A DNA stretch of 64,000 bases from Geosiphon pyriformis uo1 (GCA_016748015.1 JAAOMT010000703.1:618255-682254), one strand, 5' to 3'; positions 3,001-57,533 are shown, counted from the first letter of the stretch. Translations and numbers: made by a program. The notes: a model not told the origin generated them from the sequence alone.

Positions 3001-4545
3001 CTCGGAACAGAGCTAGAAAACGCGTCAACACCACAAAAAATTCTAAATTTCTCAGAAATTGCCCTCTACTGTGAACTCACTTCAATAAATTGGCAACAAC
3101 CATTAGAATGCTATCAATTTACACCAGAAAAATTGGCCAAATTAAACATTGGAACAATGGATCCTGACCAACAACGACAATTAAAAGCATTAATTTTAAA
3201 ATATTCTGATATATTTTCAAGAAATGGCAAATTTGGAAGAACCAACTTGGTTCAACACCAAATCCCCACTGGAGACACCAGACCTAAAAAACAATGCACT
3301 TACCGTGTCCCACCAATGGAGCATAATTTTATCAGAAAAGAAGTCCAAAGCATGTTGGAAAAAGGAATAATACAACCATCAATGAACCCATGGTCCTCAC
3401 CAGTTGTTTTAGTAAGGAAAAAGAATGGAAAAATTAGATTTTGCGTCGACTATCGCAAACTAAACAGCAAAACAACCAAAGACTCATACCCAATACTGTA
3501 AATTGACAAAATCTTCGACGTTTTTGAAGGAGCAAAATGGTTTTCTACACTGAACTTGACCAGTGAGTACTGGCAAGTGGAAATGGACCCAAAGGACAGG
3601 CATAAAACAGCATTCACAACACAAAATGGCAATTATGAGTTCAATGTAATGCCATTTGGATTAACAAACGCTCCCGCGACATTCCAAAGACTAATGGACA
3701 TAATTTACTCTGGAATCCTGTGGCAATCCATTGTTGTCTACTTGGATGATACAAATGTTTTCTCGTCAAAATTCACAGATCATCTCCAACATTTACAACA
3801 AGTTTTTGAGAGATTGAGACACGCTGGACTTAAACTAAATCTAGAAAAATGTTTCTTTGGGAAAAATGAGCTAGCATTTTTAGGACACGTAGTTGGAAAA
3901 GATGAAATAAAACCAGATCCATCAAAAATAGACAAAGTGAAAAATTTTCCAGTACTTCGAAACGTTTTAGAAGTTAGAAGCTTTTTAGGACTCGCATCTT
4001 ACTACCACCGCTTTGTAGAAAACTTTTCAAACATCGCCAAACCCCTTAATTACCTACTATCTAAAAATGTGAAGTTTGAATGGACTAAAGCACAACAAAA
4101 AGCTTTTGAGTACCTTAGACAAAAGCTCATTGAATCACTAATAATGATTTATCCGAATTTCAACAAGAAATTCAGTTTGGCCACAGATGCCTTTGGAACT
4201 GGACTTGGAGCCATTCTGTCACAAAAAGATAATAATGGAAGAGAACGTGTAATTGCTTATGCCAGCAGAAGTCTCAGTACGGCAGAACAAAACTACGCAG
4301 CACATGAACTTGAATGCTTAGCAGTAGTCTGGAGTTGTGTTCACTTTGACACATATTTATGGTACCAACTCTTTGAGATTACAACAGATCATAGAGGTCT
4401 GGTCTGGTTAAATAACAAGAAAGTGCTAAAAAAAAAATACGCCAGATGGTCACAAATATTAGCACCATATGATTATATTATCAAATACAAAGAAGGTACC
4501 AAAAATGCTAATGCCGACTGTTTGTCAAGAATGAGACACACATAA
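1..4545 (+). pseudogene. Family A Gag-PR-Cys-rich-dUTPase-RT-RNaseH polyprotein with in-frame stops
   Basis: ORF fragments at 211, 847, 1210, 1558, 1999, 2452 and 3556 are all in one frame; motifs CYFCKCVGH, ASRSNL..GGVIDFGYTG..KIAQ, PWSSPVVLV, MPFGL, YLDD, NADCLSR*. Confidence 0.93.
2290..2715 (+). pseudogene. dut: dUTPase domain inside family A polyprotein
   Basis: All five trimeric dUTPase motifs visible (D-A-x-F-D-L, RS-N-L, GVIDxGYTG, KIAQ, RGTFGF). Confidence 0.9.
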
Positions 4546-4574
4546 AAATCACCAATCCACCCACCACAACAACA

Positions 4575-5954
4575 ATGAACAACCACCTTTACAAAAACCT
4601 CAGCCAATACTTGGAAACACTACAAATAGACAAAGAAATGCTAGTAAAAGAGCTAATTAAGCTCCAAAAATTAGCAAAACACTATTTCATCCAAAATTAC
4701 ATACTTTATTACCAGAATTGACAAAATCCAGATAATCCATTAAGAGTTATAACCACGGATGAAAAAGAAACTATCTTATTTAATATGCACTCAGATATTC
4801 ATTCAGGCCACTTTGGAAAAACAGCAACCATCCAACGTGCAACTAGCCATTACTATTGGCCAAAAATGAGTTCAGACATAATTCAATACATAAGAAATTG
4901 TGACTCATGCCAACAAAGAGGAGGAGCAAAAACAACAGAATTATTAAGACCAATAAAAGTTGGACAGCCATTTGACAGAATCAGAATTGATTTAGTTGGA
5001 CCCTTACCAATAACAACAAGAAACAACCATTATATTGCAGTAGCCATGGACTATCTCACCAAATGGCCAGAAGCTAGAGCTATTAAAACAGCTGATGCTA
5101 TTTCCGTAGCTTAATTCGTACATGAAAACTTAATTTGCCGACATGGATGTCCACAAAAATTACTATCAGATCAAGGCACACACTTCATAAACAGCACCTT
5201 AAAAAAACTTAGCCAAAAATTTGGAATCAAGCGACTACTGTCATCACCATACCACCCTCAAACAAATGGATTAGTTGAAAGATTTAATCGCACATTATGC
5301 AAATCACTGGCAAAAATTAGTAACAAACATAAAAAAGAATAGGATTTGTTCATACCAGCAGTACTACTAGCATATAGAACAGTAAAACAAGATACTACAC
5401 AATTCACACCGTTTGAACTAGTTTATGGAAGAAAAGCCACATTACCAGTTGAACTTACTATCCCAACTTATCTAAGTGACACTATCATGGAAGCAACATT
5501 TCAGGAAACACTACTTAGAAGAACATACGAATTAATGGGAACTTTAGAAAACAAAAGAAGAAAGGCAGCACAAAATATTGAACAATCACAAGAACAACAA
5601 AAAGTGAGACATAATAACCAATTACCAGATAATATAATTAGCTACAAAATTGGAGATAAAGTATTGTTGCATCGTACAAAAATGGAAAAACAGTGGAGTG
5701 GAAAATTTGATCACAAGTGGGATAGACCATTTTATATTCACAAAATACTTGGAAATGGAGCATACAAGCTAAAACTAGATGATAAAATATTAAGAAAAGC
5801 AGCACATGGTAACCGGCTGAAATTCTATTACAGTAAACCAGTAATAACAACAAAAACACCCAGAATTAGAACACAATTACCTTTAATTCTACCAAAACAA
5901 ATTCCACGAGATTTAGAACCAATAGTTTTAATTGAACATTATTCGAAAAGATAA
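4575..5954 (+). pseudogene. Family A integrase, separate ORF
   Basis: ATG at 4575, 29 nt after the RNaseH stop; HHCC (HSDIHSGH...CDSC), IDLVGP, SDQG, GLVERFNR, GPF-like module, tail DLEPIVLIE; no chromodomain. Confidence 0.92.
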
Positions 5955-6560: not shown

Positions 6561-6570
6561 AAGGAGGAGA
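6559..6570 (+). promoter_or_regulatory. Polypurine tract of element A
   Basis: gaaaggaggaga, followed by taa and then the LTR TG. Confidence 0.9.
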
Positions 6571-6573
6571 TAA

Positions 6574-7440
6574 TGTTATGGTTTAAGAATTTAGCAAAAA
6601 GAATCATAAAAATAATACAAACTATTCAATCATAATATAGCACAGTAATAATCTTAGAAAGGTAATGATTAACATAGTAGCAAACACCATCTCGCAATAG
6701 TGGCAAGCACCAGTTCACAATAGCAGCCAACACCAACTGGTAATAGCAGCAAACACCAGATTGAAATATCAAAAAGAAAGTATTTTCTTGTAGAACTACA
6801 AACATGTATATATACAGTAGTTTTAATATTGGGAAATAATCAATCAAGTAATAAAAATCATAACTTATCAAGCAACAGATCCAATTTTATCCAACAAACT
6901 CCACTTTAAATCATACTTTCAAATTAAATATCTCAAAAAATCTTTAAAAATTAAAAAGAAATAAAAAAGAATATTTAAAACGGAACTATCACAACCCAAA
7001 GTATTAAGAAACTTACTTGTATTATTTATTGAATGAAACTATCATTCATCAACTGAATCCCTTGGAAGAATAATCCTTGATCAAGATTATTCACGTTGTT
7101 ACTAATTGATAAAAGCTTTATTGTGAGAATTAGAAAAGCACTAAAGACCATTAACATTCTGTGTTTCTAAATTAGAGAAACACATCAGGCAATTGCAAGG
7201 ATAGCCTCAGAGAAGACCCCAGACAGTGGGTAGATTTCAGTTCAGCCTCCTAGAAGAAGTACATAAACACACACAACAATCAAGAATTAAAGAATAACTT
7301 ACATCGCAACAGTAAAAAGAAAGTTTTCAGTGTAACAGTGACATTATCACACAAATAGAATTGAGGAACTCACAAAAGACTGATTGCAATTAAAGCGGGA
7401 TATCAGCAATTAAATATAACAAGAAAACCATCTTGTAACA
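6574..7440 (+). repeat. 3' LTR of element A (867 bp)
   Basis: TGTTA...TAACA ends; near-identical to 18975-19767; TATA-like gtatatatac near 6806. Confidence 0.95.
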
Positions 7441-8956
7441 ACAGCCACCAAACTTCATTCCAGATTTTCTACAGCTTTGCAGATATGTGGATATCATGTT
7501 ACAAACAATTTGCAGATGGAATAAATGTTATTTGCTCCAACCAAAACAATTGAAACAAATGAACATAGCAAACTTAGACCCACTTTAACATATGCAGCTC
7601 AAGATATTACTTAACAACTTTAATAATATTTTTGTTAGCAAAGATGAATTTGGCCATACTAATATTATCTAGCATCAGATTAAAACTGGAAATATGATGC
7701 CAATAAACAACAAGCATGCAGAGTACCACCAGCCAGCCATAAAATCATTTATCAAGAAATCAATCAGATGCTTGACAATAGGTTAATTCAGCCATTAATA
7801 AGCTCATAGTCATTACCAGTAGTACTAGTCCAAAAGAAAAATGGAAAAATCTGCTTTTGTGTAGATTACAGGAAACTGAATGGAGTAACAAAAGAAGATA
7901 ACTACCTGACTCCAAAAATCCAAAAACTGTTTGATGCTTTTGGAGGAAAGAATGGTTCTCAACTTTGAACTTAGACAGCAGTTACTGACAAGTAGCCATA
8001 AAATTGGAAGATAAAAAGAAAATGGCTTTTACAACACAAGAAGGGAATTTCAAATTTGAAGTAATGCTATTTGGTTTGATGAATGCACCAGCCATCTTTC
8101 AACAACTAATGGAAATTGTTTACACCAGACTACTATAGAAATTAGTAGTTGTTTACTTAGATAACACAAATGTGTTCTCCAAGACATTTGATGATTATTT
8201 ACATCATCTCCAACAAATGTTTGAAAGACTAAAAAAAGCCAGATTAAAATTAAATGCAACCAAGTATTTCTTTGAAAAAACTAAACTTAAGTTTTTGGGA
8301 CATTTTGTGAACAAAGGCAGTATTAAAACAAATTTAGACAAGATTAAGATAGTCAAAAACTTTTCAGTACCAACCAACTTGACAGAACTAAGAGCATTCT
8401 TGGAATTTGCTGAATACTATTATCACTTTATCAAAGACTTTTCTAAACTGGCCCAGCCATTATACCAGCTCCAATCAAAAAACATCAAGTATAAATGGAC
8501 AGAAAACCAGCAAAAAACTTTCAACATATTAAAAAGAAAACTTATTCAAGCTTTAGTGTTGATGTATTCAGATTACAGCAAATCATTTATCATCACCACT
8601 GATGCATTAGGCCAAGCATTGAGAGCAGTACTATCACAGAAAAGACTGGATGGAAGAGAACATCCAGTAGCATACACCAGCCAAAGTTTGAGTCCAGCTA
8701 AAAAAAACTATGAAACACCAATATTAGAATACTTAGCAATCTATTGGGCAGTTATGAAATGAAAAGAATACTTAAGCCAGAAGTTTGACATATATACTGA
8801 TCATAAAGAATTGACTTCAATTCAGAAGCAAGAATTTGAAGATGATTGTCATGCTCAATGGAAAATAGAACTTTCACCATTTAAATATACTGTATACTAT
8901 AAAAAAGGAAAAAAAACAGAAATGCCAATGGTTTATCATGAATGAAACAAATCTAA
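7441..8956 (+). pseudogene. Element B RT-RNaseH fragment
   Basis: CFCVDYRKLN, YLDN, ITTDA..GAVLSQ-like; ends MKQI*. Confidence 0.9.
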
Positions 8957-8986
8957 GGACACTTCAATCCAAAAATATAACAAAAG

Positions 8987-9970
8987 ATGAATATACAAAA
9001 ATATTAACAACTTCAACATTTTATAAATACTCAATGGTTTAAGGAGAAATTATCTCAAAAGGAACAAAACCATATCAAACAACAGTCCAAATATTTTATT
9101 ACTTACCAAAATATACTTTATTGGAAAAACAGAAAAAATCCAGATCAACCAACCAGAGTAATCACAAAACCAGAAAAAGAAACAATATTATTCAACATGT
9201 ACTCTGATTCAACAGCAAGACATTTTCACAAAGAAGCAATCATAAAAAGAACCAAAAATAAATACTATTGGCCATCCATGTACCCAAACATCATTCAATA
9301 CATGCAAAATTGTGATGCTTGTCAGAGAAAAGAAGAAACAAGATCCAGTGAGCCATTAAGACCAATCAAAGTAGAACAACCATTCAAGTATATTGAAATT
9401 GACTTAGTTAGACCATTAACAATAACTAACAGAGAGAACAGATACATCACAGTAGTCATGGATTATCTCACTAAATGGCCAGAAGCAAAAGCAATTCAAA
9501 GAGTAAATGCAGAATCCATTGTCAAATTCATTTATCAAGATCTGATTTGTTGACATGGATGTCCAAAAGAATTATTATTCGACCAAAAAACTCACTTTGT
9601 GAATAGAACATTAACAAAACTGAGTCAAAGATTCGAAATAAAGAGACTATTATCATTACCATATCACCCACAAACCAATGGATTAGTTGAAAGATTCAAT
9701 AGAACATTGTGCGAAACAATAGCCAAGATCAGCCAAAAAAACCAGAACAAATGAGATTTATTCATATCATCAATATTATTTGCTTATCAGACAATGAAGC
9801 AAGATACTACATAAGCAATACCATTTGAATTAGTATACAGTAGAACAGTAACATTACCAGTTGAGATAGAGATTAATACATATCTAATGGAACCAATAAC
9901 AGAAGACAATTTCCAAGAAACATTGCTAAGAAGAACATATAACTTAATGGAAATGCTAGAAAACAAATGA
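8987..9970 (+). pseudogene. Element B integrase, 5' part (3' part about 40163-40547)
   Basis: Own ATG at 8987; ORF 9197-9553 with CDAC and DYLTKWPEA; GLVERFNR. Confidence 0.88.
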
Positions 9971-10939
9971 CATTACCAGTAGAATTTTAGCTATTAATTA
10001 GCATAAAATTACCCTCATAATTTCTATTATTAATTAGCATTTATTATTATTATTTTAATTATTACTTATTATTTAATCAAATTATCAAATATCATTACTT
10101 AATCAATAATCCGATTTGTATTCTAGAAATTAAGATGATCAAATTACACAATACTCTGAACCATTTAACATAGTCAAAATTCGCCGAAATCAATGAAAAT
10201 TGGCCGAAATAATCAATAGTTCAGTGAAATAACTTGTAGTTTGCCGAAATTATCTTTAGTTTACCCAAATTGTAGCAAAAAGAAAAATGCAAGTTCAAAG
10301 ACTAGTACTACAACAGGTTGTATAAAAGAAGAGCTTTTCTCTTCAAGAAAATGTATCTTTTCATAATATCTTAACATAGTATCTTACTTTAGATATCTTA
10401 ATTGAAACAAATCATCTTTTACATATTTCAAATAAAAATTAAATATTCAAAAAACAAATTCTTTGATTATTACATTTGAAATTCCCTAAACACAACTAAT
10501 ATTTTGAAATTGATTAGCTACCAATTTCAATAAACTGTTAGTGACTCCAGGCATGAATAGAAAACGTTTCCCTTGACAGAATTCTATTTCTTTTACATTT
10601 CTTTTATTTTTCTTTTATTTCTTGTTACAATCATTAGAATAGCCTACAAACGAGATTCCTGTAGAAGAGTTGACTTTCACAGCAAAGTAACTACACATTT
10701 TAGTAAGCTTCCAGACAAGCAATTCCTGGGAAAGAGTTGATGTTTACTACAACATAATTACATAAAGTAACTGACAAAAAATTGGCCATTTCACTCATAA
10801 GTCCAGCAGTTCAAATTATAAGAGATAATTTGAAGATAAATTCAGTTACTGAAGGTCCAACTTCTTCCTGAAAACGTGAATTCACAGCAAATCAATATTA
10901 ACAACATTCAAGAAAAAAGACCAAAAACCTCCAGTAACA
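9971..10939 (+). repeat. C1 5' LTR (starts CA instead of TG)
   Basis: cattaccagtagaatttt...ccagtaaca; matches 39204-40162. Confidence 0.92.
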
Positions 10940-15071: not shown

Positions 15072-15647
15072 TTTGGTGCTCTCTGTAAAGTATAATCTTA
15101 CAGAGAACCAGCACCATCAACAATCATCCAAAAGTGGCAGAATTAGAAATCATAGAGACAAACCATTTAGGATTTGCCAAATTCTTATTTCAACAGTACA
15201 GTCAACAATTAGGATTGAACAATAATCATTTTCTAGCAGAATCAGTTATAAAATCACAGATTGCTTAGAAGAAACAGTTAACATTGAATCAGCAAGGGAA
15301 AACTTTTATACAAAATTATTTCAACATACCAGCTTACCAAGAAACTACAGTTTTGCACCAATTATTAGGGAAATTAATCAAGCTATTAAAAGGTATACAC
15401 AACAACAATTCCCTATCACCTATGTAGATAAAGGCAAAGGAAGATTGCAAACCCCAGTAGTAACACCAAAACAAATCCAACTACCCAATTGGAAGAAAAC
15501 TCAAGTTGAATTATCCACCAATCTATCATATCATTATATGCCCAGAAGTGCCATCAATATCTCATCAACAGACATGTCTACATCAATCTTTGGATGCTTC
15601 TCATTTCAAAGTAAACAACAAAAAACAGAGTTATTAAGATCATATGA

Positions 15648-16637
15648 TGTTACCAGTAGAATTTTAGCTATTAATTAGCATGAAATTACCCTTATAATTT
15701 CTATAATTAATTAGTATATTAATATTATTTCAAATTATCATTTATTATTTAATCAATTATTACATATCATGATTCAATTAAAATAATCTAATTAATATAA
15801 CAGAAAGTAGGATGATCAAATTACACAATACTCTGAACTTTGTAACATTCTAAAATTCGCCGAAATTTACAGAAATTCGCCGAAATTTATAAGAAATTCG
15901 CCGAAATTTATAGAAATTCACCAAAATTATGAATAGTTCAGCAAAATAACTTGTAGTTCATCAAAATGTATCTTTAATTCGCCAAATATTGAGCAAAGAG
16001 AAAAAGTGCAAGTTCATAGACTAGTACTACAACAAGTTGTATAAAAAAAGAGCTTTTTTTTTTAAGAAAATGTATCTTACTTTAGATTTATTACTTAGAA
16101 CCATTCCTATACACACAAAAAGAAATAAATATCAAATAATTCAAAAAACCAAATTCTTTAATTATTGCACTTGGAAAATTCTCAAAACCCAACTAACATT
16201 TTAAAATTGATTAGCTACCAATTTCAGTAAACTGTTAGTGACTCCAGGCCTGAATAAAAAACATTTTCCTTAATAAAATCCTATTTCTTTTACATTTCTT
16301 TTATTTTTCTTTCTTTTCTTATTACAATCATTAGGATAGCCTACAGACAAGATTCCTGTAAAAAAGTTGACTTTTACAGCAAAGTAACTACACATTTTTA
16401 GTGAGCTTCCAAACAAGCAATTTCTGGGAAAAAGTTGACGTTTACTACAATATAACTACATAAAGTAACTGGCAAAAAATTGGTTATTCCACTTATAAGC
16501 CCAGCAGTTCAAATTATAGGAGATAATTTGAAAATAAATTCAGTTATTGAAGGTTCAACTACTTCTAAAAGACGTGAATTTGCAACCAACAGACAGTTAC
16601 AACATTCAAGAAAAGAGACCAAAAACCTCCAGTAACA
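15648..16637 (+). repeat. C2 5' LTR (990 bp)
   Basis: tgttacc...agtaaca; one more 20-bp U3 repeat unit than the 3' LTR. Confidence 0.95.
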
Positions 16638-19767: not shown

Positions 19768-22700
19768 ATGCACTCCAATACCAAGCTGTAGTCAGAAATG
19801 ATTGGCTTCTCAAGGCCAATGCAAACCTGAACTGGAAAACTCAAGAACTTAAAATCTCATACCAAGGACAATATACCATAGTACCTGCAACCTGTGGTAT
19901 CTTTAACAAACAATCAGAAAAAGCTCCAGTATTTGAATTTGAAGAAGAGAAAGAAATGCCACTCACTAAAACTTACATGGCTCTTGAATCACCATTCAAT
20001 TGGGCTGAAGAAACAGAACAAGAGATTTTTGAAGAATTAAGAGAATAGAAAAAAGTTAGATATTCCACACCAGAACCATGAAAAGAACCACTATACATTC
20101 CACTAAAATGCAAAGATTGCAAAAAGAAGCTTTCATCTATGGGAGCCTGTATTTCTCCAGAAGAGGAATACGAAACTTGCACTTACTACTTCTGCAAAGC
20201 ATGCCATAGAAAACGATTTGGATCCCCAAAGAGAAGTGGAAAATGGGACAAAACTTCTTGTCTTACTTGTGGAAAAAGGCTACCAGAAGAATGCAATTGG
20301 ATTAATATAGCAATGAGAGAAGGAGTATGTGATCAGACCTGTTAATATGCTCTATCAATTTTGGAAAAAGTCAGAAGAAGAACACCATTTGATGCAGCAT
20401 ACAACAGTGCTTTCAATAAACTTTACCACTACCCTTATGATGCTAAAATAATTTTTGACTTAGCAATAGCATTGATCAATAAAGCCACCCAAGAAGATGG
20501 CTGCCAAATAAAAGAAGCTGAATACATTGAGTATATCATAGAATTAGCTGGATTTGATTATGAAGATGAAGTAAAAACCTACCACCAAATTGCAAGCCAC
20601 ACATATCTGACCAAAGAAGCTCAAATTCAATGATTAGAGCAAATAAACATTCAGTTGTGTGAAAAATGTGTTATGCCTTGTGATGACCAATGGTGTTTAG
20701 AATGTTATGCTCTCAGCATTCCTCTGCCAGATGAGAATAATGAAAATGAAATCGAATTTGGAGTATCTAAACTAGTAGAAAAACTACCAACCACCCCCAT
20801 CTATCTTCTTGAAAAGCAACCATCTCTACAACTTAAATATTTTGACAACCATGGCCAAGGAATCAGACCAAAAAAAACACACGAAATTGATGCTGGATAT
20901 GACCTAAGATACTCAGGAAAAGATACTTTGGTTCTCCAACCAAAGTCTTTGACAAAAATCAATCTCAAAATTGCTCTTGAAATTCCACCAGGAGCAATGG
21001 TTCAAATTGCCTTCAGATCATTATTGGCAAGCAAAAGAATCAATATTAGAGGAGAAGTTATAAATGCAGAATACACTGGAGACATTACCATCATGTTACA
21101 GAATAAGACAGACAAACCATTCAAAATTGAACATGCTGAAAAAAATTGCTCAAGCAATTTACTTACTCTTAATCAACATTTCGAGTTTACAATCAGTAAA
21201 CAACAGAGAACAATTGGAAAAAAGTGAAAGAAGAACTTAAGGTTTTGATTCAACTGGACAATTTACAGTTTCAGTAAACATAGCTCTTAATACACAAAAT
21301 GAATCTCACCAGATTCTTCAATTTTTCCAGCCAATTACCATTTCACCTTTTGGAGAACATCACGAAATTTACACTTGCTCAAAACCCACCACTACACAAC
21401 AAATCTTTGAATCCAATGAACAAATCTGTTTAAAGCATGAAATCTCAATTCCAAACGTTTATATTTCCAAAGAAATAAAAAAATTTTGAGTTATATTCTA
21501 CAATCCCAATAATTACTTTATTGTTTTATTAAACAAAGTGGAGATTGGAATCATACACAGCAATATTTTTCAAGATAAAAACCCTCATATTGTCTCTAAT
21601 TTTATCGAAATTGTAAAGCACACTCTATTCCCAAATTCAAATATCATTTTCACTACTGAAAACTACCACTTTTTGGAAGAAAAACTCTCTCGAATCAACA
21701 TGGATCTCTTAGAACCTTAACAACAAAGACAATTGAAACAATTGATAGCTAAATTTGCAGATATATTTGCAAAAGACAACAATGATCTGGGAAAAACAGA
21801 TATGGTTCAACATTAGATCCATACAGGAGATGCTCTACCAAAACATCAGCAAGCTTACAGAGTGCCATCTGTTAGCCACCAATTCATCAGAGAAGAAGTC
21901 CAGAGAATGCTCAATAATGGATTGATTCAACCATCAAGAAGTCCTTGGGTCTTATCAGTAGTTCTTGTCAAAAAGAAAAATGGAAAAATCAGATTTTGTG
22001 TTGACTATTGCCAAGTGAACAGTATGACAATTGAAGATGTCTACTTTCTTTTAAGAATTGATGACATGCTAGATGCTCTAGGAAAAGCCAAGTTTTTCTC
22101 AACTTTAGACTTGGAAAGTGGATACTGGCAAGTCGAAATGGACCCAAAAGACTAATCCAAAATAGCATTTACCACCCAAGGAAGAAACTATGAGTTCAAT
22201 GTTATGCCTTTTGAACTCTGCAATGTACCAACAACATTTCAGCGACTTATGAATGTTGTATATAAAGGGCTCTTGTGGCAATTAGTAGTTGTTTATCTTG
22301 ATAACACTGATGTATACTCACCAAGTTTTGAGACTTATTTTATCCACCTATGAGAAGTTTTTCAACAATTATGGAAAGCAGGATTGAAGTTAAACATTGA
22401 AAAATGTTACTTTGAAAAAACAAGCTTAATCTTTCTTGGACACATTGTTAGCAAAGATGGAGTCAAACCAAATCCAGAAACAATCAGTGCTGTCAAAAAC
22501 TTTCAAACCCCCAGAAATACCACAGAACTAAGAGGATTTGTAGGATTAGCCTCTTACTATCAAAAATTCATCAAAGGATTCTCAGAAATTGCCAAACCAC
22601 TCAATTATCTTACCAATAAAAATGTGCCATACAAATAGACTGAAGAACAACAAAAAGCATTTAAAACCCTCAAAACAAAGCTGACAACAGCCTCAGTTCT

Positions 22701-23164
22701 TGCTTACCCAGACTTCAACAAATGATTTCAACTAGCCACTGATGCTTTACACATAGCATTTGGTGCCATCTTATCACAAGTAGATGAAAATAGGCAAGAA
22801 CAAGTCATCACTTATGCTAATAGAACACTCAAACCAACAGAACTAAAATATGGCTCAACTGAATTAGAAGCTGCCGCAGTTATTTGGGCTTTTAAACATT
22901 TTCAACAATATCTGAAGAATGGAAAAGAATTTGACATAATAATGGACAATATTGGCCTCAAATGGCTTAATAAAAAGAAAACTGAACAAAGTGTCAAACA
23001 GTTTTGATGGAATAACTTCCTAGCAGACTACAGATATATTATACACCACAAACCAAGAAAACTACATACCAATGTTGATAGCCTCTCAAGAATGAGACAA
23101 AATTAATACCAACAACAAATTCCACCACAACTTACCAACCTACCAACAAAATAACCAAACAAGA

Positions 23165-24676: not shown

Positions 24677-25384
24677 ATGATTATTCTCTGAAATATTCAA
24701 CAAATATCCCAAAAGTTAATGTTAGCCTTGAAAACATTTCTTGACTTATCCATAATGATTAATAGAAGTTAAATTAATTACATTCAGAAAGAAATCACAG
24801 CCCCAATAGCAAATCATTCACAGAACTATCATCTCTATAGAAGAAAAACAAGAAGCCACTCTGAAAATAAATTACCAAGACTTTTGAAGCAAGCACTAGA
24901 AGAAAATTTTTTAATTGCCCCTATGGACATTCCACCAAATACTACAATGCAACAAAAATTTTTACTACTTTTCAATGAACAGAACAATGAACACACCCTT
25001 ATCTATAAATACTTTCACATTGGAAAGACATTTTATGAACAAAAACTGAAACTTGAAGCAACAAATCTCACTCCTAAAGCTATACAAAAACAAATCTACA
25101 ATGAATTCAAAACAGCAACTGGACCAACAAACACTCACTACAAACTTAGAGCAGCTTTTAGACTCTATGATTTGTTTAATACTTGTGAAAATGTTCTACA
25201 AAATCCAATACTGCAACCAATGAAAGTCCAATACATTGGCAAACTCACAGAACTGAAATTTCAACAATTTTCAGATCAGATTACTTCAATTATTTTGGAT
25301 CACTATCTCAATATTACAAATAGTGCTTGGACTTCAATGGAGCTCAGTCTTGAGGAGAAGATTATGTTACCAGTAGAATTTTAG
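24677..25384 (+). pseudogene. C2 ORF3, unknown function
   Basis: 708 nt, same length and frame as C1 38516-39223; reads through the PPT into the LTR. Confidence 0.8.
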
Positions 25385-26334
25385 CTATTAATTAGCATGA
25401 AATTACTCTTATAATTCCTATAATTAATTAATATATTAATATCATTTCAAATTATCATTTATTATTTAATTAATTATTACATATCATGATTCAATTAAAA
25501 TAATCTAATTAGTATAACAAAAAGTAGGATGATCAAATTACACAATACTCTGAACTTTGTAACATTCTAAAATTCGCTGAAATTTATAAGAAATTCGCCG
25601 AAATTTATAGAAATTCACCGAAATTATGAATAGTTCAGCAAAATAACTTGTAGTTCATCAAAATGTATCTTTAGTTTGCCAAAATTTGAGCAAAAAGAAA
25701 AAGTGCAAGTTCATAGACTAGTACTACAACAAGTTGTATAAAAGAAAAGCTTTTTTCTTCAAAAAAATGTATCTTACTTTAGATTTATTACTTAGAACCA
25801 TTCCTACACACACAAAAAGAAATAAATATCAAATAATTCAAAAAACCAAATTCTTTAATTATTGCACTTGAAAAATTCTCAAAACTCAACTAACATTTTG
25901 AAATTGATTAACTACCAATTTCAGTAAACTGTTAATGACTCCAAGTCTGAATAGAAAACGTTTCCCTTGATAAAATCCTATTTCTTTTACATTTCTTTTA
26001 TTTTTCTTTCTTTTCTTATTACAATCATTAAGGTAACTTACAGACAAAATTTCTGTAGAAGAGTTAACTTTCACAGCAAAGTAACTACACATTTTTAGTG
26101 AGCTTTTAGATGAGCAATTCTTGAGAAAGAGTTAACATTTACTATAATGTAACTACATAAAGTAACTGGCAAGGAATTGGCCATTCCACTTATAAGCCCA
26201 GCAGTTCAAATTATAGGAGATAATTTGAAAATAAATTCAGTTATTGGAGGTTTAACTACTTCTAGAAAACGTGAATTTGCAACCAACAGATAGTTACAAC
26301 ATTCAAGAAAAGAGACCAAAAACCTTTGGTAACA
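25365..26334 (+). repeat. C2 3' LTR (970 bp)
   Basis: Preceded by PPT gaggagaaga; matches the 5' LTR. Confidence 0.95.
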
Positions 26335-29300: not shown

Positions 29301-31986
29301 CACTGGAACCTATAGAACTCGACTGGAATGAAGAATCAACCATAAATTTTCTGGAACCAGAAGAATTTCATGAACACTATCAAACTTTGGCATCCACAAA
29401 AGAAGAACAAGAAGAGCATTTAGCACAGTTAAACACTTGATTATGTGACCACTGTTTGGTTTCATGTGACTTTCAATATTGTAATAAGTGTGACCTCATT
29501 TACAATCCACTACTGCACATGATCTACACAATTCCAGAGAAAGAAGAACCAATCAGCAGCTGCACATCAGAATTGGAATCAATGTTCAATTCCAATTCAA
29601 ACTTTAACAACAACAATGATAAAAACAATGGTTTCAGCTCCACTTCAAATAGCAACAAAAATTATAATGATTCAAACTCCAATTCAAATCCTGAAACATT
29701 TATTGTACTTCTTGATCTTTCAAAGAAACAGAAACTCAAATGGGTATAGTGATAATAATGAAGATATCATGCCAGAACACATATATGATACTGATGCAGG
29801 GTTTGATCTGAGATATTCAGGAAAAAAAGCCATCAAATTGGAACCAAATTCACGCATATGTATTGATCTCAAAATAGCTCTGGAAATTCCAGCAACAACC
29901 ATGGTCCAATTAGCATCTAGGAGTAGTTTAGCAAAAAAAAGAATCAACATCAGAGGAGGAATAATTGATGCGAAATACGTAGAAAATATCATTGTCATGC
30001 TACAAAATGACTCAGAAAAGACCTATATTATAGAACTAAATAAAAAGATAGCACAGGCAATATTCTTACCTCTGGTGAAAATAGCTCAGTTAGTTTCAGT
30101 AGGAAAGAGAGAAAAATTAGGTATAACAGCAACAGAAATTTGGATCAACAGGTAGAATAGATATATCAGTTAATATGGCAGAAGAAAAAATTGTTGACAA
30201 AGAAGAAATTATCTCAACTCATCAAACAATTTTCATTCCGCCATATGACCAGTATATGTTAGCCATAAAAAGAGAAGTAAGAGATCAAGCTCAATTGTTT
30301 GAAGCAAAAGCCACTATTTGTAAATTAGAAGAGATTGGACTCATTAATTTCTACATATCAGCCAAGAGCTCCAAAAACATCAAAATCCTCATATATAACA
30401 CAACGGGAAAAGTCATCAAAATACCAAAGAGAACTATCATTGAATATTTAACCACTGAAGTTGAGGATCAACCACTAAACCACATTCCAGATTTTCCACA
30501 GCTTTGTGAATATGTGGACATTACATCACAAACCATTTATGGAAGAAGTGAATGTTATCTGCTCCAACCAGAACAATTAAAACAGATAAACATGAGGAAT
30601 CTAGATCCATTTCAACAAATACAATTAAAGATATTACTCAGAAATTTTAATGACATCTTTGCCAGTGAAAATGAATTTGGCCACACCAACATCATCCAGC
30701 ATCAAATCAAGACTGGAGATGCAATGCTAATTAAACAATGAGCATACAGAGTATCACCAGCTAGCCATAAAATCATTTGTCAAGAAATCAACCAGATGCT
30801 TAACAATGGGCTAATTCAGTCATCAATGAATTCATGGTTGTCACCAGTAGTACTAGTCCATAAAAAAAATAGAAAAATCCATTTTTGTATAGACTACTGA
30901 AAACTGAATGGAGTAACTAAAGATGATAGCTATTCAACTCCAAAGATCCAAGAACTATATGATGCTTTTGGAGGAAATAAATGGTTCTCAACACTAGATT
31001 TAAATAGTAATTACTGGCAAGTAGCCATGGATCCAGCTGACAAAAAAAAAACAGTGTTCACCACAAGAGAAGAAAATTTTGAGTTTGAAGTCATACCATT
31101 TGGCTTGATGAATGCTCCAGCAACATTCCAACAGCTCATGGAAATTGTCTATATTAGATTACTATGGAAATTAGTAGTTATGTACTTGGATAACACCAAT
31201 GTGTTCTCAAAAACATTCGATGATCATTTGCATTATCTCCAACAAGTGTTTGAAAGATTGAGAAGAGCAGAATTGAAACTAAATGCAACCAAATGTTTCT
31301 TTGAAAAAACTGAATTCAAGTTTTTGGGACATGTAGTAAGCAAAGATGGAATCAAAACGGATCCAGACAAGATTAAAGTAGTTAAGAACTTTTCAGTACC
31401 AACTAACTTGACAGAACTAAGAGCATTTTTAGGTTTTACAGACTATTATTGCCATTTTATTAAAGACTTTTCAAAACTGGCTTAGCCATTTCACCATCTA
31501 TAGACCAAGAATGTAAAATATGAATGGACTGAAGCTCAACAAGAAGCATTTGACACATTAAGAAGAAAGCTTATCCAAGCTTCAGTATTGATGTATCCAG
31601 ATCACAGCAAACCATTTATAATTACCACTGATGTATCAGGTCAAGCATTGGAAGCAGTACTATCACAAAAAAGATCAGATGAAAGAGAACATCCAGTAGC
31701 TTATGCCAGTAGAAGCTTAAGTCCAGCTGAGAAGAACTATGGAACTCCAGCACTAGAACACTTAGCTATCTATTAGGCTGTCATCAAATAGAAGAAATAC
31801 TTGAGTCAAAAGTTTAAAGTATACACTGATTATAAAGAATTGACTTCAATCCAGAAACAAAAATTTGCAGATAACCACTATATCAGATGAAAAATAGAAC
31901 TTTCACTATTCAATTATACAGTACATTATAAAAAGAGAAAAGACAATTGAAATGCCGATGGACTGTTACAAATAAGACAAATCTAA
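26339..31986 (+). pseudogene. D Gag-PR-Cys-dUTPase-RT-RNaseH, 3' part
   Basis: YAPIAKLEKF, CHYC..H, LILDSGSAG, AGFDL/ASRSSL/GGIID/KIAQ, YLDN. Confidence 0.9.
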
Positions 31987-32016
31987 AAACATTTCAACCC
32001 AAAAATATAACAAAAG

Positions 32017-33393
32017 ATGAACACACAAAAATACCAACAACTTCAACATTATATAAATACTCAATTGTTCAAGGAGAAATTATCTCAAAAGGAACAAAAC
32101 AATATAAAACAACAATCAAAATATTTTATCAATTATCAAAATATACTCTACTAGAAGAACAGAAAAAATCTAGATCAACCAATTAGAGTAATCACAGAAC
32201 CAGAGAAAGAGACAATATTATTCAACATGTATTCAGATCCAACAGCAGGACATTTTTATAAAAAAGCAACTATAGAAAAAACCAGAAAAAGATATTATTG
32301 GCCATCAATATATCCAGATATTATCTAATATGTTCAAAATTATAATGCTTGTCAAAGAAGAAAAGGAACAAGATCAAGTGAATCATTAAGACCAATCAAA
32401 GTAAGACAACTATTTGATTGCATTAGAATTGACTTAGTCAGACTATTAACAATCACCAGTAAAGGCAACAGATATATTGCAGTAGCCATGAACTATCTCA
32501 CAAAATGGCCAGAAGCAAAAGCCATTCAAAGAGCAGATGCAGAATCTGTTGCCAAATTCGTCCATCAAGATTTGATATGTTGACATGGATGTCCAAAAAA
32601 ACTACTATCAGATCAAGAAACTCATTTTGTAAATAGAACATTAACAGAATTAAGTCAGAGATTTGGGATAAAAAGACCATTATCGTTACCATATCATCCA
32701 CAAACAAATGGACTAGTCAAAAAATTTAATAGAACACTATGTAAAGCAATTGCCAAAATCAGTCAAGAAAACCAAGATGAATGGGATTTGTTTATACTAT
32801 TAGTATTATTTGCTTATTGGACAATAAAACAAGATACTACACAAGCAACACTATTTGAATTGGTATATGGTAGGACAGCAACATTACCAGTTAAGAGAGA
32901 GGTCAGCACATATCCAACTGAACCAATAACAGAAGCTAATTTCCAAGAAACATTGTTGAGAAGAACATATGACCTAATGGAAACACTAGAAAACAGATGA
33001 CGAAAAGCAGCTGATAATATTCAAAAGTCTCAAGAAAAGCAAAAAAAATGACATGATAACTAATTATTAGATAAACCAGTTGAATTCAAGATTGGAGACA
33101 AAGTACTTTTACATCATACCAAAGTAGAAAAACAATGAAGTGAAAATTTTGATTCCAAATGGAATGGACCATTTTACATAGAAGAAATTCTTGAAAATAG
33201 AGCTTATAAACTAAGATAAAACAACAAAACCTTAGCCAAAGCAGCACATAGTGATTAACTCAAACCATATCACCAAATAACATTATCATCTACCAATAAT
33301 ATTTCACAATTAGGAGTACAACAAATACTAGTTCAACCAAATAAGATTTTATGAGATCTGAAACCAATTATAATCATTGAACCAAACATGTAA
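32017..33393 (+). pseudogene. D integrase, separate ORF
   Basis: ATG 30 nt after the ORF1 stop; DDE-region motifs; tail DLKPIIIIE. Confidence 0.87.
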
Positions 33394-34960: not shown

Positions 34961-37900
34961 ATGCTAAAAAGATTGCCCAAGCAATTTACCTATCCTTAAT
35001 CAACATTTCAGGTCTACAATCAGTCAACAACAGAGAACAATTGGGAAAAAGTGAAAGAGGAATGCAAGGTTTTGGTTTAATTGGATGATTTACAGTATCA
35101 GTAAACATAGCTCTTAATACACAGAATAAATCTTACCAGATTCTTCAACTTCCCCAACCAATTACCATTTTATCTTTTGGTGAACATCACGAAATTTACA
35201 CTTGCTCAAAACCCACTACTACCTAACAAATCTTTAAATTCAATGAACAAATCTGTTTAAAGCATAAAATTTTAATCCCAAATGTTTATATTCTCAAAGG
35301 AATGAAAAAATTCCAAGTTATATTCTACAATTCCAATAATTACCCCATTGTTTTATTGAACAAACTAGAGATTAGAATCATACACAGTAACATCTTTCAA
35401 GATAAAAACCCTCAAATTGTCTCTAATTTCATCGAAATTATAAGACATACACTACTTTCAAATTCAAACATCATTTTTACTACTGAAAACTATCACCTGT
35501 TAAAAGAAAAACTCTCTTGAATTAACATAAGTCCCTTAGAACTCCAACAACAAAGACAATTGAAACAACTGATAGCTGAATTTGCAGATATATTTGCAAA
35601 AGACAACAATGACCTTGGAAAAACTAATATTGTTCAACATCAAATTCACACAGAAGATGCTCTACCAAAACAACAACAAGCCTATTGAGTTCTACCTGCT
35701 AACCACCAATTTATCAGAGAAAAGGTCCAAAAAATGCTCAATAATAGATTAATTCAACCATCAAGAAGTTTTTGGGCCTCACCAGTAGTTTTTGTCAAAA
35801 AGAAAAACAGAAAAATCAGATTTTGTGTTGACTATTAACAACTAAACAGTGTCACAATTAGAGATGCCTATCCTCTACCAAGAATTGATGACATATTAGA
35901 TGCTTTAGGAAAAGCCAAGTTTTTCTCAACTTTAGACTTAGAAAGTGGATACTGATAAGTCGAAATGGATCCAAAAGATCAACTCAAAACAGCATTTACC
36001 ACTCAAGGAGAAAACTATAAGTTCAATGTTATGCTTTTTGGACTCTGCAATGCACCAGCAACATTCCAATAACTCATGGATGTTATATATAAAGAACTCT
36101 TATAGCAAATCAGTAATTGTTTATCTTGATGACACTGATGTTTACTCACCAAACTTTGAAGCCCATCTTATTCACCTGTGAGAAGCTTTTCAATGATTAC
36201 GGAAAGCAGGATTAAAGTTAAACATTAAGAAATATTACTTTGGAAAAACAAGCCTAATTTTTCTTGGACACATTGTTAGCAAAAAAAGAGTCAAACCAAA
36301 CCCTAGAACAATCAGTGCTGTCAAGAACTTTCAAACTTCCAAAAATACCATAGAGCTATGAGGATTTGTAAGATTAGCCTTTTGCTATAAAAAATTCATA
36401 AAAAGATTCTCAGAAATTGCCAAACCACTCAACTATCTTACCAACAAAAACGTGCCATATTAATGAACTGAAAAACAACAAAAAGCTTTTAAAACTCTCA
36501 AAACAAAATTGACAACAGCTCCAGTTTTTGCTTATCCAGACTTTAACAAACAGTTTCAACTAGCTACTAATGCTTTACACATAGCTTTTGGTGTCATTCT
36601 ATCACAATTAGATAAAAATGGCCAGAAACAAGTCATTGCCTATGCCAGCAGAACACTCAAGCCAACAGAACTCAAATATGGCTCAACTGAATTAAAAGCT
36701 GCCACAGTCATTTGGGCTCTTAAACATTTTCAACAATATCTGAGGAATGGAAAAGAATTTGATATCATAACTGACAATATTGGCCTTAAATAGCTCAATA
36801 AAAAGAAAACTGAACAAAGTGCCAAACAGTCTTGATGGAATAACTTTCTAGCAGACTACAAATATATTGTATACTACAAACCAGGAAAACTACACACCAA
36901 TGTTAATAGCCTCTCAAGAATAAGACAAAATTAATAATACCAACAAATTCACTACAACTTACCAACCTACTAACAAATAACAAAACAACAATAGATTTCA
37001 GAAATTACAACAATCTTAAAAACTATTTAAAGACTCTTATTATGCCAGAAAATTAGTTTTCAAGTGAAAAACATCGATTACAACACCAATTCAAACAATA
37101 TTTCATACACTATAACAAAATTTATTACAAAAATTGTAGAAATCCAAACCAGACTAATACAGAAAAATGAAAAAGAAACAATCCTATACAACATGCATAC
37201 AGATCTTTCTTTAGCATACTTAAGAAGAGATGGAACAATTCAAAGAACTTTTGAACATTATTTTTGGCCTCACATGCAAAAAGACATTCGAAAATATGTA
37301 GAATCTTGTGATAGTTGTTAAAGAAAAGAAGAAATTCATCTCACAGAACCTTTAAATCCAATCAAAGTTGGACAACCTTTTGACAGAGTTGGAATTGATT
37401 TAGTCAGACCATTATCTATCACAACCCAAGAAAATTGTTATATTGTAATAACAGTAGATTATCTCACCAAATGGCTTGAAGTTAGAGCCATTCAAAGAGC
37501 AAATGCAAAATCAGTAGCAAATTTCATCTATGAAGACATTATTTGTAGACATGGATGCTCAATTAAACTTTTATCTGATTAAAAAACACATTTTATGAAC
37601 AACTTGATACAAAAAATCTGTGAACAATTTAATGTCAAAAGACCTCTATTATTATCTTATTACCCTTAAACAAATGGACTTGTAGAATAGTTCAAAAGAA
37701 CATTGTGTGAATTTTTAGCCAAAGTCTCAACAGACTTTAAGCAGGAATGAGATATCTTTATTCCATTAGTGTTACTAGCATACAGAACACTAAAACAAAA
37801 TACTACAAAACACATACCATTTAATCTTACTTATGGAAGGACAGCAACATTACCAATTAATTTTACAGTGGAAACGTATCCAGTACAACCAATCAATGAA

Positions 37901-39223
37901 GAAAACTTCTAAGAAACACTCCAAAAAAGAGCCTACACTTTCCTTAGTACATTGGAAGGAAAAAGACATATAGCAGCCACTCATATTGAACATTCCCAAG
38001 CCCTACAAAAAGAAAGACATGACAGCAAACTGCCACCAGTTACCAACAAATTTAAAGTTGGAAATAAAGTTCTCTTATACAGAACTAAGGCTGAAAAACA
38101 ATGGAGTGGAAAATTTGAACATAAATGAGATGAACCATTTTATATTCACGAAATTCTAGACAATGGATTATACAAGTTAAGACTTGATGACAAAGTACTA
38201 ACAAAAGTTGCACATGGAGATTGATTGAAACAATTCTGAATCATTAATTCTACAAATTGGTACACATTCCCCTTTAATTGATCCTAAAGATATTCCCCAA
38301 AATTTAGAACCAATAATTATAATAGAACAACAACCAAACTTGAACACTTAATTTAACATTTTTTACAAACTCCTTTAAAATACACAAAACAAATCAAAAA
38401 TAGTAAATAATTAGAAGAAATATTCAAACCCAAAAACAAATAAAAAAACCCTATACCCAAAAATAATTTTTTTTATTCTTTTTCAAATTTTGTTTATTAG
38501 TTAGTCATTTTTATTATGATTATTCCTTGAAACATTCAACAAATATCCCAAAAATTAATGTTAGCTTTGAAAACACTTTCTGACTTATCCATAACGATTA
38601 ATGGAAGTTAAATTAATTACATTCAGAAAAAAACTACAGCAACAGTAGTAAATAATTCTCAGAATTATCACTTCTATAGAAAAAAAACAAAAAGTTCCTC
38701 TGGAAATCAATTACCAGAACTTTTGAAACAAGCACTAAAAGAAAACTTTTTATCTGCCCCTATTAATATTCCACCAAATACCACAATGCAACAAAAACTT
38801 CTACTATTTCTTAATGAACAGAACAATAAACATACTCTTATATATAGATATTTTCATATTGGAAAAACACTTTATGAATGAAAACTAGAACTGGAAACAA
38901 CCAACATTACTCTTGAGGCTATACAAAAACAAATTTACAATGAATTCAAGACAGCAACTGAACCAACAAACACTCATTACAAACTTAGAGCAGCATTTAG
39001 ATTCTATGATTTATTGAACACTTGTGAAAACATCCTACAAAACCCAATACTTTATCCAATGAAGATTCAATATATTAGAAAGCTTACAGAACTGAAATTT
39101 CAACAATTTTCAGATCAGACCACTTCAATTATCTTGGACCATTATTTTAACATCACAGATAGTGCTTGGACTTTGATGGAGCTCAGTCTGGAGGAGGAGA
39201 TTATGTTACCAGTAGAATTTTAA
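34961..39223 (+). pseudogene. C1 3' part: dUTPase end, RT-RH (stop 36934), IN (36991-38351), ORF3 (38516-39223)
   Basis: Collinear with C2 21133-25384. Confidence 0.9.
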
Positions 39224-40162
39224 CTATTAATTAGCATGAAATTACCTTCATAATTCCTATTATTAATTAGCATATATTATTATTATTTCGATTATTACTT
39301 ATTATTTAATCTAATTATCAAATATTATTACTCAATTAATAATCTGATTTGTACTCTAAAAATTAAGATAATCAAATTACACAATACCCTGAACCATTTA
39401 ACATAGTCAAAATTCGCCAAAATCAATAAAAATTGGCTGAAATAATCAATAGTTCAGTGAAATAACTTGTAGTTTGCCAAAATGTATCTTTAGTTCACCC
39501 AAATTATAGCAAAAAGAAAAGTGCAAGTTCAAAGACTAGTACTACAACAAGTTGTATAAAAGAAGAACTTCTCTTTTTAAGAAAATGTATCTTCTCATAG
39601 TATTTTAATATAGTATCTTACTTTAGATATCTTAATTAAAACAAATCATCTTTTACATATTTCAAATAAAAATTAAATATTCGAAAAACAAATCTTTTGA
39701 TTATTACATTTAAAATTCCCTTAACACAACTAACATTTTGAAATTGATTAGCTACCAATTTCAATAAACTGTTAGTGACTCCAGGCCTGGATAGAAAACG
39801 TTTCCCTTAACAGAATTCTATTTTTTTTATTTTTTTTTTATTTTTTTTTTATTTTCTTGTTACAATCATTAAGGTAGTCTACAGACAAGATTCCTGTAGA
39901 AAATTTGACTTTTACAGCAAAGTAACTACACATTTTAGTGAGCTTCCAGACAAGCAATTCCTGGGAAAAAGTTGACATTTACTACATAAAGTAACTGGCA
40001 AGGAATTGGCCATTTCACTTATAAGCCCAGCAGTTCAAATTATAGAAAATAATTTAAAGATAAATTCAGTTACTGGAGGTCCAACTTTTTCCTAAGAACG
40101 TAAATTCACAGCAAATCAACATTAACAACATTCAAAAAAAAAGATCAAAATCTCTGGTAACA
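39204..40162 (+). repeat. C1 3' LTR
   Basis: tgttaccag...ctggtaaca after the PPT. Confidence 0.94.
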
Positions 40163-40627
40163 ATGGTGAAAAGCAGTTGATAACATTCAAAAATCACAAG
40201 AAAAACAAAAAGAAAGACACAATAACCAACTATCAGATAAACCAGTCGAATTCAGAATTGAAGACAAAGTACTGTTACATCATACCAAAGCAGAAAAACA
40301 GTGGAATGAAAAATTTGATTCAAAATGGGATAGATCATTTCACATACACAAAATTTTAGAAAATGGATCTTACAAGTTACAATTAAAAAACAGAATTTTG
40401 AAAAAGACAGCACATGGAAATCATTTAAAAATTTATCAAACACAAAGATCAACATCAGTGGAATCACAACTAAAAGCACAAATTCTATTAATCAGACCAG
40501 AAAATATACCACGAGATATAGAACCAATCATAATTATCAAGATGTAGCTACATATGTGCTGAAATCTAGATATTATGTGCATATAAGTCTCAAGACTACA
40601 AAGAAGGGAATAATAAAAATTTCAACC

Positions 40628-56816: not shown

Positions 56817-57533
56817 ATGACTATTCCTCAAAACATTTAACAATTATCCCAAAAACTAATGTTAGCTTTAAAAACAATATCCGAATTATCTATTACTGTT
56901 ACTGAAAACCACATTAATTATATCCAAACAAAAGTAGTCACAAATTTAGCCCCAAATTCACGAAAATATCACCCATATAAGAAGAACACAAGAAGTTATT
57001 CTGGAATTCACCTGCCAGAACTTTTAAAGCTTGCTTTAAGAGAAAACTTAATGCTCACTCCTATTAGTATTCCACCAAATGCTACTATTTAACAAAAACT
57101 TCAACTGTGTTTTAATAAAGAAAACTATGACTATACTCCAATATATAGATATTTCTACATTGGAAAAACACTTCATGAACAAAAATGGGAGCTTACAGTA
57201 GCAAACCTCACAAAAGAAGCTATTCGGAAACAACTCCACAATAAATTCAAGACAACAACTAGACCTACAAACAGTCATTATAAATTAAGAGCTGCTCTTA
57301 GACTTTATGACCTATTTCACTGTAAAAACGTTCTACAAAACCCAATTTTACAACCTTTGAAGATTCAATACATTGAAAAGCTTACAAAACTGAAATTTCA
57401 ACAATTTTTAGACCAAATCTCTTCAATAATTTTGGATTATTATCTGGAAATTACAGACAGTACTTGGACTTCGACAGAGCTCAGTCTTGAGGAGGAGGTT
57501 ATGTTACCAAACAAAATTAGAGATATTATTTAG
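56817..57533 (+). pseudogene. C3 ORF3, unknown function
   Basis: Homologous to C1/C2 ORF3; ends inside the LTR. Confidence 0.8.

Follow-up and report, generated by a model that had tools for sequence, protein, structure and literature searches.

How does a long terminal repeat (LTR) retrotransposon express its integrase (IN) when the open reading frame (ORF) for the upstream enzymes ends before IN begins? This question is raised by a 64,000-nucleotide stretch of the Geosiphon pyriformis uo1 genome (GCA_016748015.1, JAAOMT010000703.1:618255-682254; hereafter the window), in which six copies of Ty3/Gypsy elements carry IN behind a stop codon. In canonical Ty3/Gypsy elements, IN is the last part of the pol polyprotein (PMC3248453). 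An earlier note on the window had described IN as a stand-alone ORF in all six copies, and had suggested its expression by termination-reinitiation, from a CAA-rich leader resembling an internal ribosome entry site (IRES), or from a subgenomic RNA. Here, we report that a separate IN is, to judge from the sequences of relatives, near certainly the layout of an entire clade, and that termination-reinitiation on the genomic RNA is on balance a probable means of its synthesis.

A conserved stop codon separates RNase H from integrase in the window

The window, with a GC content of about 30%, consists of nested, decayed Ty3/Gypsy elements, nearly all on the + strand. A Pfam search revealed Gag, protease (PR), dUTPase, reverse transcriptase (RT), RNase H (RH) and IN domains, with matches to the families RVT_1, RT_RNaseH, Integrase_H2C2 and rve and weaker ones to Ty3_capsid and SH3_Tf2-1. 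Six RT-RH-IN copies and three LTR pairs (90-94% identity) were placed by local searches. The domain order of Gag, PR, RT, RNase H and IN is that of Ty3/Gypsy elements, as are the TG...CA ends of the LTRs, a TGGT motif downstream of the 5' LTR that resembles a primer-binding site (PBS), and a purine tract upstream of the 3' LTR.

In copy A, gag, PR, dUTPase and RT share one frame. The end of this ORF1 (Gag-PR-dUTPase-RT-RH), comprising the 3' part of RT together with RNase H, occupies 3502..4545 (+; Pfam RVT_1 and RT_RNaseH, and translation) and terminates with TAA at 4543-4545. It is followed by a 29-nt spacer at 4546..4574 (+) that is G-free, AUG-free and unstructured (14 A, 13 C, 2 T; minimum free energy 0.0), and then by ORF2 at 4575..5954 (+), a stand-alone IN of 459 codons with HHCC and DDE motifs, an SH3-like end and three internal decay stops. 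The same arrangement was read on the + strand in copy B (8954..9967; stop 8954-8956, 30-nt spacer with a second in-frame TAA, IN ATG 8987), copy C2 (23104..24562; stop 23104-23106, 58-nt spacer, decayed start ATA 23165), copy D (31984..33393; stop 31984-31986, 30-nt spacer with a second in-frame TAA, IN ATG 32017), copy C1 (36932..38230; stop 36932-36934, 56-nt spacer, decayed start ATA 36991, IN matched to 38230) and copy C3 (55255..56694; stop TAG 55255-55257, 51-nt spacer, IN ATG 55309). The IN of copy B is interrupted near 9970 by the insertion of C1, with a likely continuation at 40159-40538.

In all six copies, the ORF1 stop lies a few codons past the RNase H end motif and is TAA in every copy except C3, where it is TAG. 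The spacers of A, B, C2, D, C1 and C3 (29, 30, 58, 30, 56 and 51 nt) place IN in frames +2, 0, +1, 0, +2 and 0, and IN starts with ATG in A, B, D and C3 and with ATA in C1 and C2. The stops, spacer lengths, start codons and differing frames given in the earlier note were all borne out. The RNase H end of copy B is itself frameshifted, and the spacers of C1 and C2 differ in length through indels.

Every IN in the window is broken, with 3 to 10 stops each, which might suggest that the junction stop is likewise a decay product or an old lesion of dead elements in which IN is no longer made. However, the junction stop is present in six of six copies, whereas among 50 other stop positions in the RT-RH and IN alignments 36 occur in a single copy and none in more than four. 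Thus, as the earlier note had argued, chance decay does not account for it. The six copies amount to about four lineages (B and D are about 80% identical, C1 and C2 about 84%). The double TAA of B and D, which the note had also pointed out, is indeed present but, given their close kinship, represents one event. In a tree of RT-RH sequences the window copies form one clade with a Shimodaira-Hasegawa-like approximate likelihood ratio test (SH-aLRT) support of 99; comprising some four lineages of one clade, they place the origin of the split layout before their divergence. Between these lineages, the ratio of nonsynonymous to synonymous substitution (dN/dS) was 0.16-0.31 for IN (0.61 for the close pair C1-C2) and 0.13-0.27 for RT, by a crude Nei-Gojobori calculation in which several RT pairs were saturated. 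Such ratios, of about 0.25, indicate that IN is under purifying selection between the window lineages, contrary to what decay would predict.

Sequencing data were also compared with copy A. Across 2525 contigs of DNA run X1, which may come from the source of the window itself, the 40 differences listed spare both stop and ATG and include no indel; 50 further ones exist, and invariance is therefore unproven. One contig of run X2 skips 4404-4564 of copy A, with ends (TG..CA) that are not an intron signature.

Intact relatives encode integrase as a separate ORF

A protein search with the IN of copy A (stops read as X) returned 1993 near-length matches, of which the best 120 were examined. These proteins of 396-453 aa are 42-52% identical to the query and contain IN domains only. 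The first residue is Met in 118, a Met occupies the column of the window ATG (Met1 of copy A) in 103, and the HHCC and DDE residues are retained in all 120. None of the 120, nor the IN of loci L036 and L048, contains a chromodomain (PF00385), and the protein search found no relatives in viral_contigs. One IN of the split clade (P0384, in the cluster of P0118) is filed under an Acidobacteria metagenome-assembled genome on a 2.5-kb contig, probably through fungal contamination.

Since a near-length search is unable to return fusions, a search for longer proteins served as control. Only six of its best 120 matches (of 1268) reach 40% identity. Five of the six are NCBI gene models (P0124, P0125, P0127, P0128 and P0129; 42-51% IN identity) that join IN to upstream domains. 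The sole true fused ORF found was P0126, a metagenome protein with continuous RT-RH-IN-ORF3, ORF3 being a third ORF described below.

The reciprocal search with RT-RH (7965 candidates scored; best 120 of 7663 matches taken) gave a consistent result. Among proteins of at least 50% identity, 78 of 82 lack IN, although a few may be cut by contig ends; 56 of the 78 stop no more than 32 residues from the end of RNase H, and the other 22 extend by 61-395 aa that do not belong to IN. In the remaining four IN is joined, and three of these lie outside the split clade. We further collected 80 metagenome loci, 40 of which reach the RNase H end. A continuous RH-IN Pol of the canonical kind was found in none of these 40, nor in any of the six window copies. 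Several loci are complete, with an ORF1 of 1480-1850 codons, an IN of about 415 and an ORF3 of about 140, and L036 is intact with LTRs 97.7% identical. With intact IN ORFs of 400-450 aa among the relatives, and with intact elements whose LTRs are nearly identical, we give almost no credence to decay. The intact relatives support the proposal of the earlier note that IN is a stand-alone ORF, and one by descent; the note had regarded loss of the stop from the youngest copies as a contrary sign, and the intact relatives keep it.

For the RT-RH tree, 66 rows were chosen from 154 and a quick method was used, with SH-aLRT support and no bootstrap. Forty-five split rows fall on one side of a branch (SH-aLRT 96), together with P0126, the gene model P0125 and the long-branched P0132; 17 fused rows and the IN-less P0352 fall outside it. 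The named close homologues come from Rhizophagus irregularis, R. clarus, Cetraspora pellucida and Entrophospora sp., all Glomeromycota. The split elements form one Ty3/Gypsy clade in this tree, likely of Glomeromycota.

Junction types and signals at the integrase start

The earlier note had proposed aligning many RH/IN junctions. Twenty-three of the 80 loci were too short or had no IN start. In the table of 57 loci, the automatic choice of upstream ORF was wrong for the decayed L002, L029, L044, L053 and L073, which were excluded from a strict set of 35 (IN intact or cut by the contig end, with 140 or more codons in the upstream ORF). These 35 loci form 28 groups at 90% and 14 at 70% IN identity, and counts from them overstate independence. 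Gaps between ORF1 and IN range from -145 to +141 nt in all three frames (0, +1 and +2 in 10, 11 and 14 loci), with 5 overlaps, 8 plain spacers and 22 spacers containing an RNA motif described below. Overlap junctions in the table of 57 include the types TAATG (L025, L026), ATGA (L004) and -8, or ATGnnTRA (L003, L023, L063, L071). In L048 an intact IN follows a G-free A/C spacer of 30 nt, the type seen in the window. TAATG and -8 overlaps recur between IN and ORF3 (L061, L013).

The start codon of IN has a distinctive context. An A at -3 is found at 41 of 45 distinct IN starts and in all six window copies, compared with 101 of 317 internal Met codons. Leaving the RNA motif aside, the spacers contain 2 AUGs where 12.2 would be expected (none of 500 dinucleotide shuffles as low), whereas a control region after ORF3 contains 51 for 52.1 expected; for the spacers of the window itself the test is uninformative, 0 being expected. 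Counted per 100 nt, AUGs number 2.4-3.9 as far as position -75 relative to the ORF1 stop, 1.3 between -75 and -25, and 0.25 over the final 25 nt; the spacers have 0.22. The drop is about tenfold over the 25 nt that precede the stop, and the density stays low until the IN start; an AUG-free zone beginning near the stop, together with -3A, fits a 40S subunit scanning from near that point.

These junctions bear on whether an RH-IN fusion might be restored by splicing, readthrough or frameshifting, yielding a normal polyprotein. Five gene models join IN to upstream domains, P0126 is truly fused, and 10 of 35 gaps are in frame. However, P0124, P0125 and P0127 leave out the conserved RNase H end, with the joint in differing places, and their introns are probably false; P0128 is without an RT domain, and one of the five models retains the RNase H end, with an unusually long linker. 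With gaps in three frames, no single frameshift or readthrough serves all loci. The spacer of copy A, being G-free, contains neither GT nor AG, and B and D each carry a further in-frame stop there. Met1 and -3A are conserved, some junctions overlap and no YAG (Y, pyrimidine) is conserved. A restored fusion is accordingly very improbable, and the intron that the earlier note had named as evidence against its own claim is contradicted by the same observations.

A covarying RNA precedes integrase in a sister subclade

In a sister subclade, a structured RNA of about 40 nt lies just upstream of the IN AUG. Its pattern is GGUGAAAGC-NNAA-G, a 6-bp stem, a CANNGUGA loop, the returning stem and GCC. 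Across 24 distinct copies, a 12-pair structure has 97.6% of its cells paired, and 8 of the 12 pairs have changed on both sides. None of 500 shuffles reached this degree of pairing, and slid controls gave 23-51%. A covariance model returned 40 hits in the 80 loci (L008:4461-4503 and 39 others, in loci L007-L080), one of which, at the far contig end of L079, was taken from the model scan alone. In 33 loci the distance from its end to the IN AUG ranges from 0 to 32 nt, and 18 of them share a distance of 3 nt; 13 of the 35 strict loci lack the RNA. In 10 loci it had no Rfam match at E up to 1, a threshold that short motifs may miss, and neither prokaryote genomes nor viral contigs contained an exact match to its pattern. 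Likeness to hammerhead, twister and flavivirus xrRNA was rejected by eye against their consensus forms. The RNA is likely to assist restart or to bind IN or Gag; candidate roles are a restart signal, a binding site for IN or Gag, and a barrier that sets an RNA end.

In the subclade bearing this motif (L008, L010, L036, L037, L047, L052), ORF1 extends about 220-400 aa beyond RNase H, and the extension has no Pfam match in L010 or L036. Another subclade (L001:1027-1100, L005, L006, L072) shares a 74-75 nt spacer sequence that contains ACTGGACAA once or twice and folds weakly.

IN might be translated by internal ribosome entry, on the A/C-rich unstructured leader in the window lineage and on the covarying RNA in the sister subclade. 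The RNA covaries strongly and often ends exactly 3 nt before the AUG, and the window spacers are G-poor and unfolded. Pooled, the six spacers contain 6 G in 254 nt compared with 13.1% window-wide (P 1.6e-9). The earlier description of them as nearly G-free therefore holds against the whole window; it is weak against the gaps between IN and ORF3 (5.0% G in C2, P 0.03; 3.8% in C3, P 0.15), and 12.6% of all 30-nt stretches in the window hold at most one G. Since the IN-ORF3 gaps are nearly as G-poor, spacer composition alone is no mark of an IRES. The CAA-rich IRES was rejected as a special feature for this reason and because most relatives use other junction types. The covarying RNA, for its part, is short, matches no Rfam family in the loci searched and is absent from the window and over a third of strict loci, whilst overlap junctions leave no room for a leader at all. 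Internal entry is, in our judgement, improbable.

Termination-reinitiation or a subgenomic mRNA

We favour termination-reinitiation on the genomic RNA. ORF1 (Gag-PR-RT-RNase H) would end at its stop, with IN following as ORF2, with its own AUG, on the same RNA. A fraction of the ribosomes finishing ORF1 would remain bound to the RNA and begin again, at an overlapping AUG (TAATG, ATGA or ATGnnTRA) or after scanning a short unstructured spacer of the window type. Such restart would yield IN below the level of RT. In the sister subclade, the covarying RNA before the AUG would assist restart or bind IN or Gag, and ORF3 would follow IN, in some elements through the same stop-start overlaps. Of the three mechanisms in the earlier note, this one gains indirect support from the overlap junctions, the AUG-free zone and -3A, and the CAA-leader IRES gains no specific support.

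A number of observations weigh against termination-reinitiation. Only 4 of the 35 strict loci, and none of the six window copies, have UGGGA in the 120 nt before the stop; this motif, that of the termination upstream ribosome-binding site (TURBS), was rejected as a signal. TURBS-type restart declines beyond about 30 nt (PMC10275272). Five strict loci (-11 to +30) and window copies A, B and D have stop-start distances compatible with the TURBS range of about 20-30 nt; the other 30 loci and C1-C3 lie outside it, with gaps of 61-141 nt in 29 of 35 loci and 51-58 nt in the C copies. Since most gaps exceed the limit, the TURBS form of the mechanism is disfavoured. ORF1 is very long in intact loci, at 1480-1850 codons, and in L068 the overlap spans 145 nt. 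CAT is depleted too, in both spacers and control, and spacers between IN and ORF3 have no AUG depletion (5 seen, 6.0 expected), two of them exceeding 1 kb. The fused P0126 and the fused, long-branched P0132 sit inside the split clade without a fixed position. Additionally, the covariance model of the RNA has no hit in the window, even at E as high as 1, and a stable hairpin ending 3 nt before an AUG is atypical of plain scanning. Finally, AUG avoidance and -3A fit equally well a subgenomic mRNA that starts near the stop.

Such an mRNA, arising from an internal promoter, by a splice from the 5' leader or as a fragment protected from nucleases, with the motif fixing its end, would also leave IN a separate ORF. 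AUG-free spacers and -3A are expected of a short 5' leader, the gaps of 61-141 nt would be freed from TURBS limits, and foamy-virus Pol is made from a spliced mRNA (PMC3705302). CAG is present at -5 in 11 of 50 IN starts. This CAG, however, is part of the paired stem of the covarying RNA, is replaced in L013 by CGG with a compensating partner, and was rejected as a splice acceptor on that ground. As the commonest YAG position it leaves a spliced mRNA with no conserved acceptor; no YAG lies between the stop and ATG+30 in 14 of 57 loci, and copy D has none in the 150 nt past its stop. Moreover, overlaps of -1, -4 and -8, fixed in several sublineages, point to coupling, and overlap-type loci still hold AUGs 25-50 nt upstream of the stop. 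We therefore regard a subgenomic mRNA as rather unlikely.

A third ORF and other features of the window

A third ORF of about 140 aa (137-163) is conserved between IN and the 3' LTR (reference L013:1596-2042) and comprises 452 clusters at 50% identity. A profile built from the ORF3 of relatives gave weak matches within the window (E 1e-5 to 7e-3) at 24956..25297 (+; the ORF3 of C2), 38786-39133, 41112-41345 and 57144-57431. ORF3 is fused to IN in P0126 and in the gene model P0124. Its predicted structure is all-helical, with a confident model (predicted local distance difference test score 92.8). ORF3 matched no Pfam family above its cut-off and had no usable Atlas hit. With the model, a Foldseek search of PDB and BFVD at E 0.001 gave no match, and the best VIA result had Z 4.4, root-mean-square deviation 3.3 and 69 aligned; none of this is proof of a new fold. 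Errantivirus-like elements carry an envelope protein as their third ORF, and the ORF3 here was compared with that type on length, predicted fold and Pfam content. In L039:6987-8224 and L062:2599-3693 the IN-ORF3 gaps exceed 1 kb with normal AUG content, and simple scanning from the IN stop thus cannot reach ORF3 in these two loci.

Three elements are bounded by LTR pairs on the + strand. C2 (15642..26334; LTRs 15642-16637 and 25361-26334, 91% identical) has TG...CA ends and a purine tract before its 3' LTR. C3 (48594..58489; LTRs 48594-49580 and 57502-58489, 94% identical) has a TGGT PBS-like motif and a purine tract. C1 (9973..40162; LTRs 9973-10939 and 39206-40162, 90% identical) is interrupted by C2 and D. 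Within 7442-40538 the insertions are nested, C1 cutting B and containing C2 and D. A copy of the 3' LTR of A (6568-7441), 96-97% identical, spans an N gap within C2 (18969-19768) and is either a solo LTR or an assembly artefact. Pieces of a C-type LTR and of sequence upstream of dUTPase lie inverted, on the minus strand, at 47699-48584 and 58562-59812. The dUTPase itself lies between protease and RT at 2293-2700 (A), 20838-21170 (C2), 29745-30131 (D) and 52997-53400 (C3); among the best 120 of 7663 RT-RH matches, only 5 carry it.

Discussion

The separate IN is a real, lineage-wide variant of Ty3/Gypsy gene expression, and the covarying RNA of about 40 nt and ORF3 are new here. Our literature search found no description of an LTR element with a separate IN; most subscription journals, Repbase reports and supplements lay outside its scope. 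The available sections of bioRxiv 10.64898/2026.05.21.726589 and of PMC8647823, which reports recently expanded Gypsy elements in R. irregularis, do not describe one.

In LTR elements and orthoretroviruses, IN enters the particle within a polyprotein, and in foamy virus, the known exception, a single precursor still contains both RT and IN. A clade with free IN, large and apparently successful, represents another solution, with IN dose uncoupled from RT dose. IN would here be packaged without Gag-Pol fusion, most simply through uptake of the free protein mediated by RNA or Gag. With less force, IN may be made beside Gag on the same RNA and packaged in cis by RNA or Gag binding, like foamy-virus Pol; it could instead meet the cDNA outside the particle.

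Tentatively, and with rather less confidence than in reinitiation as such, we can envisage the clade running a tricistronic RNA (Gag-PR-RT-RH, IN, ORF3) by serial restart, with free IN recruited through RNA and with one branch using the new RNA to drive restart after an ORF of 1500-1850 codons or to capture nascent IN. Were this true, the intact copies in R. irregularis would open to testing both restart after very long ORFs and the need for integrase co-packaging. This model mycorrhizal fungus has intact IN-only genes, and the clade offers many natural variants of a stop-start junction as well as the covarying RNA. Annotation of such genomes may be expected to yield 'integrase-only' genes and fused models with probable false introns.

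Among known systems, Ginger DNA transposons encode a Gypsy-like integrase alone, without RT or LTRs. IN stands alone in the window clade too, but behind RT-RH within LTR-flanked elements, which rules out a transposon of the Ginger type. Human L1, a non-LTR element, has its ORF2 after a short inter-ORF spacer with extra stops. The window elements are otherwise Ty3/Gypsy (Metaviridae), non-chromoviruses with a dUTPase that share with that family the LTR ends, PBS-like and purine tracts, the order Gag-PR-RT-RH-IN, a Ty3-type capsid and an IN with HHCC, DDE and SH3 features. Unlike canonical members, they give IN an ORF and an AUG of its own, and a third ORF comes after it.

The junction words at the RH-IN and IN-ORF3 boundaries are those of coupled translation in CHV1, SART1, caliciviruses and influenza B. 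UAAUG, AUGA and AUGnnUGA are described for CHV1, SART1 and caliciviruses, and in the fungal hypovirus CHV1 about 4% restart was shown in the fungus (PMC2699510). The non-LTR retrotransposon SART1 is listed as needing RNA structure downstream of its ORF1 stop (PMC10275272). In contrast to these systems, it is here the Pol of an LTR element that is split, many gaps are 30-140 nt, UGGGA is not conserved and a structured RNA can lie between stop and start; the comparison is of genes as read.

The closest parallel for a free enzyme is with foamy-virus Pol and hepatitis B polymerase, neither of which is synthesised as a fusion to Gag; each, separate from the capsid protein, has to be recruited, and is packaged through RNA (PMC3705302). 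In foamy virus, splicing sets the entire PR-RT-IN precursor apart, and the precursor is the only form packaged (PMC3705302). By contrast, no conserved acceptor was found in the window clade, and many of its intact elements keep RT-RH on Gag and set IN alone apart.

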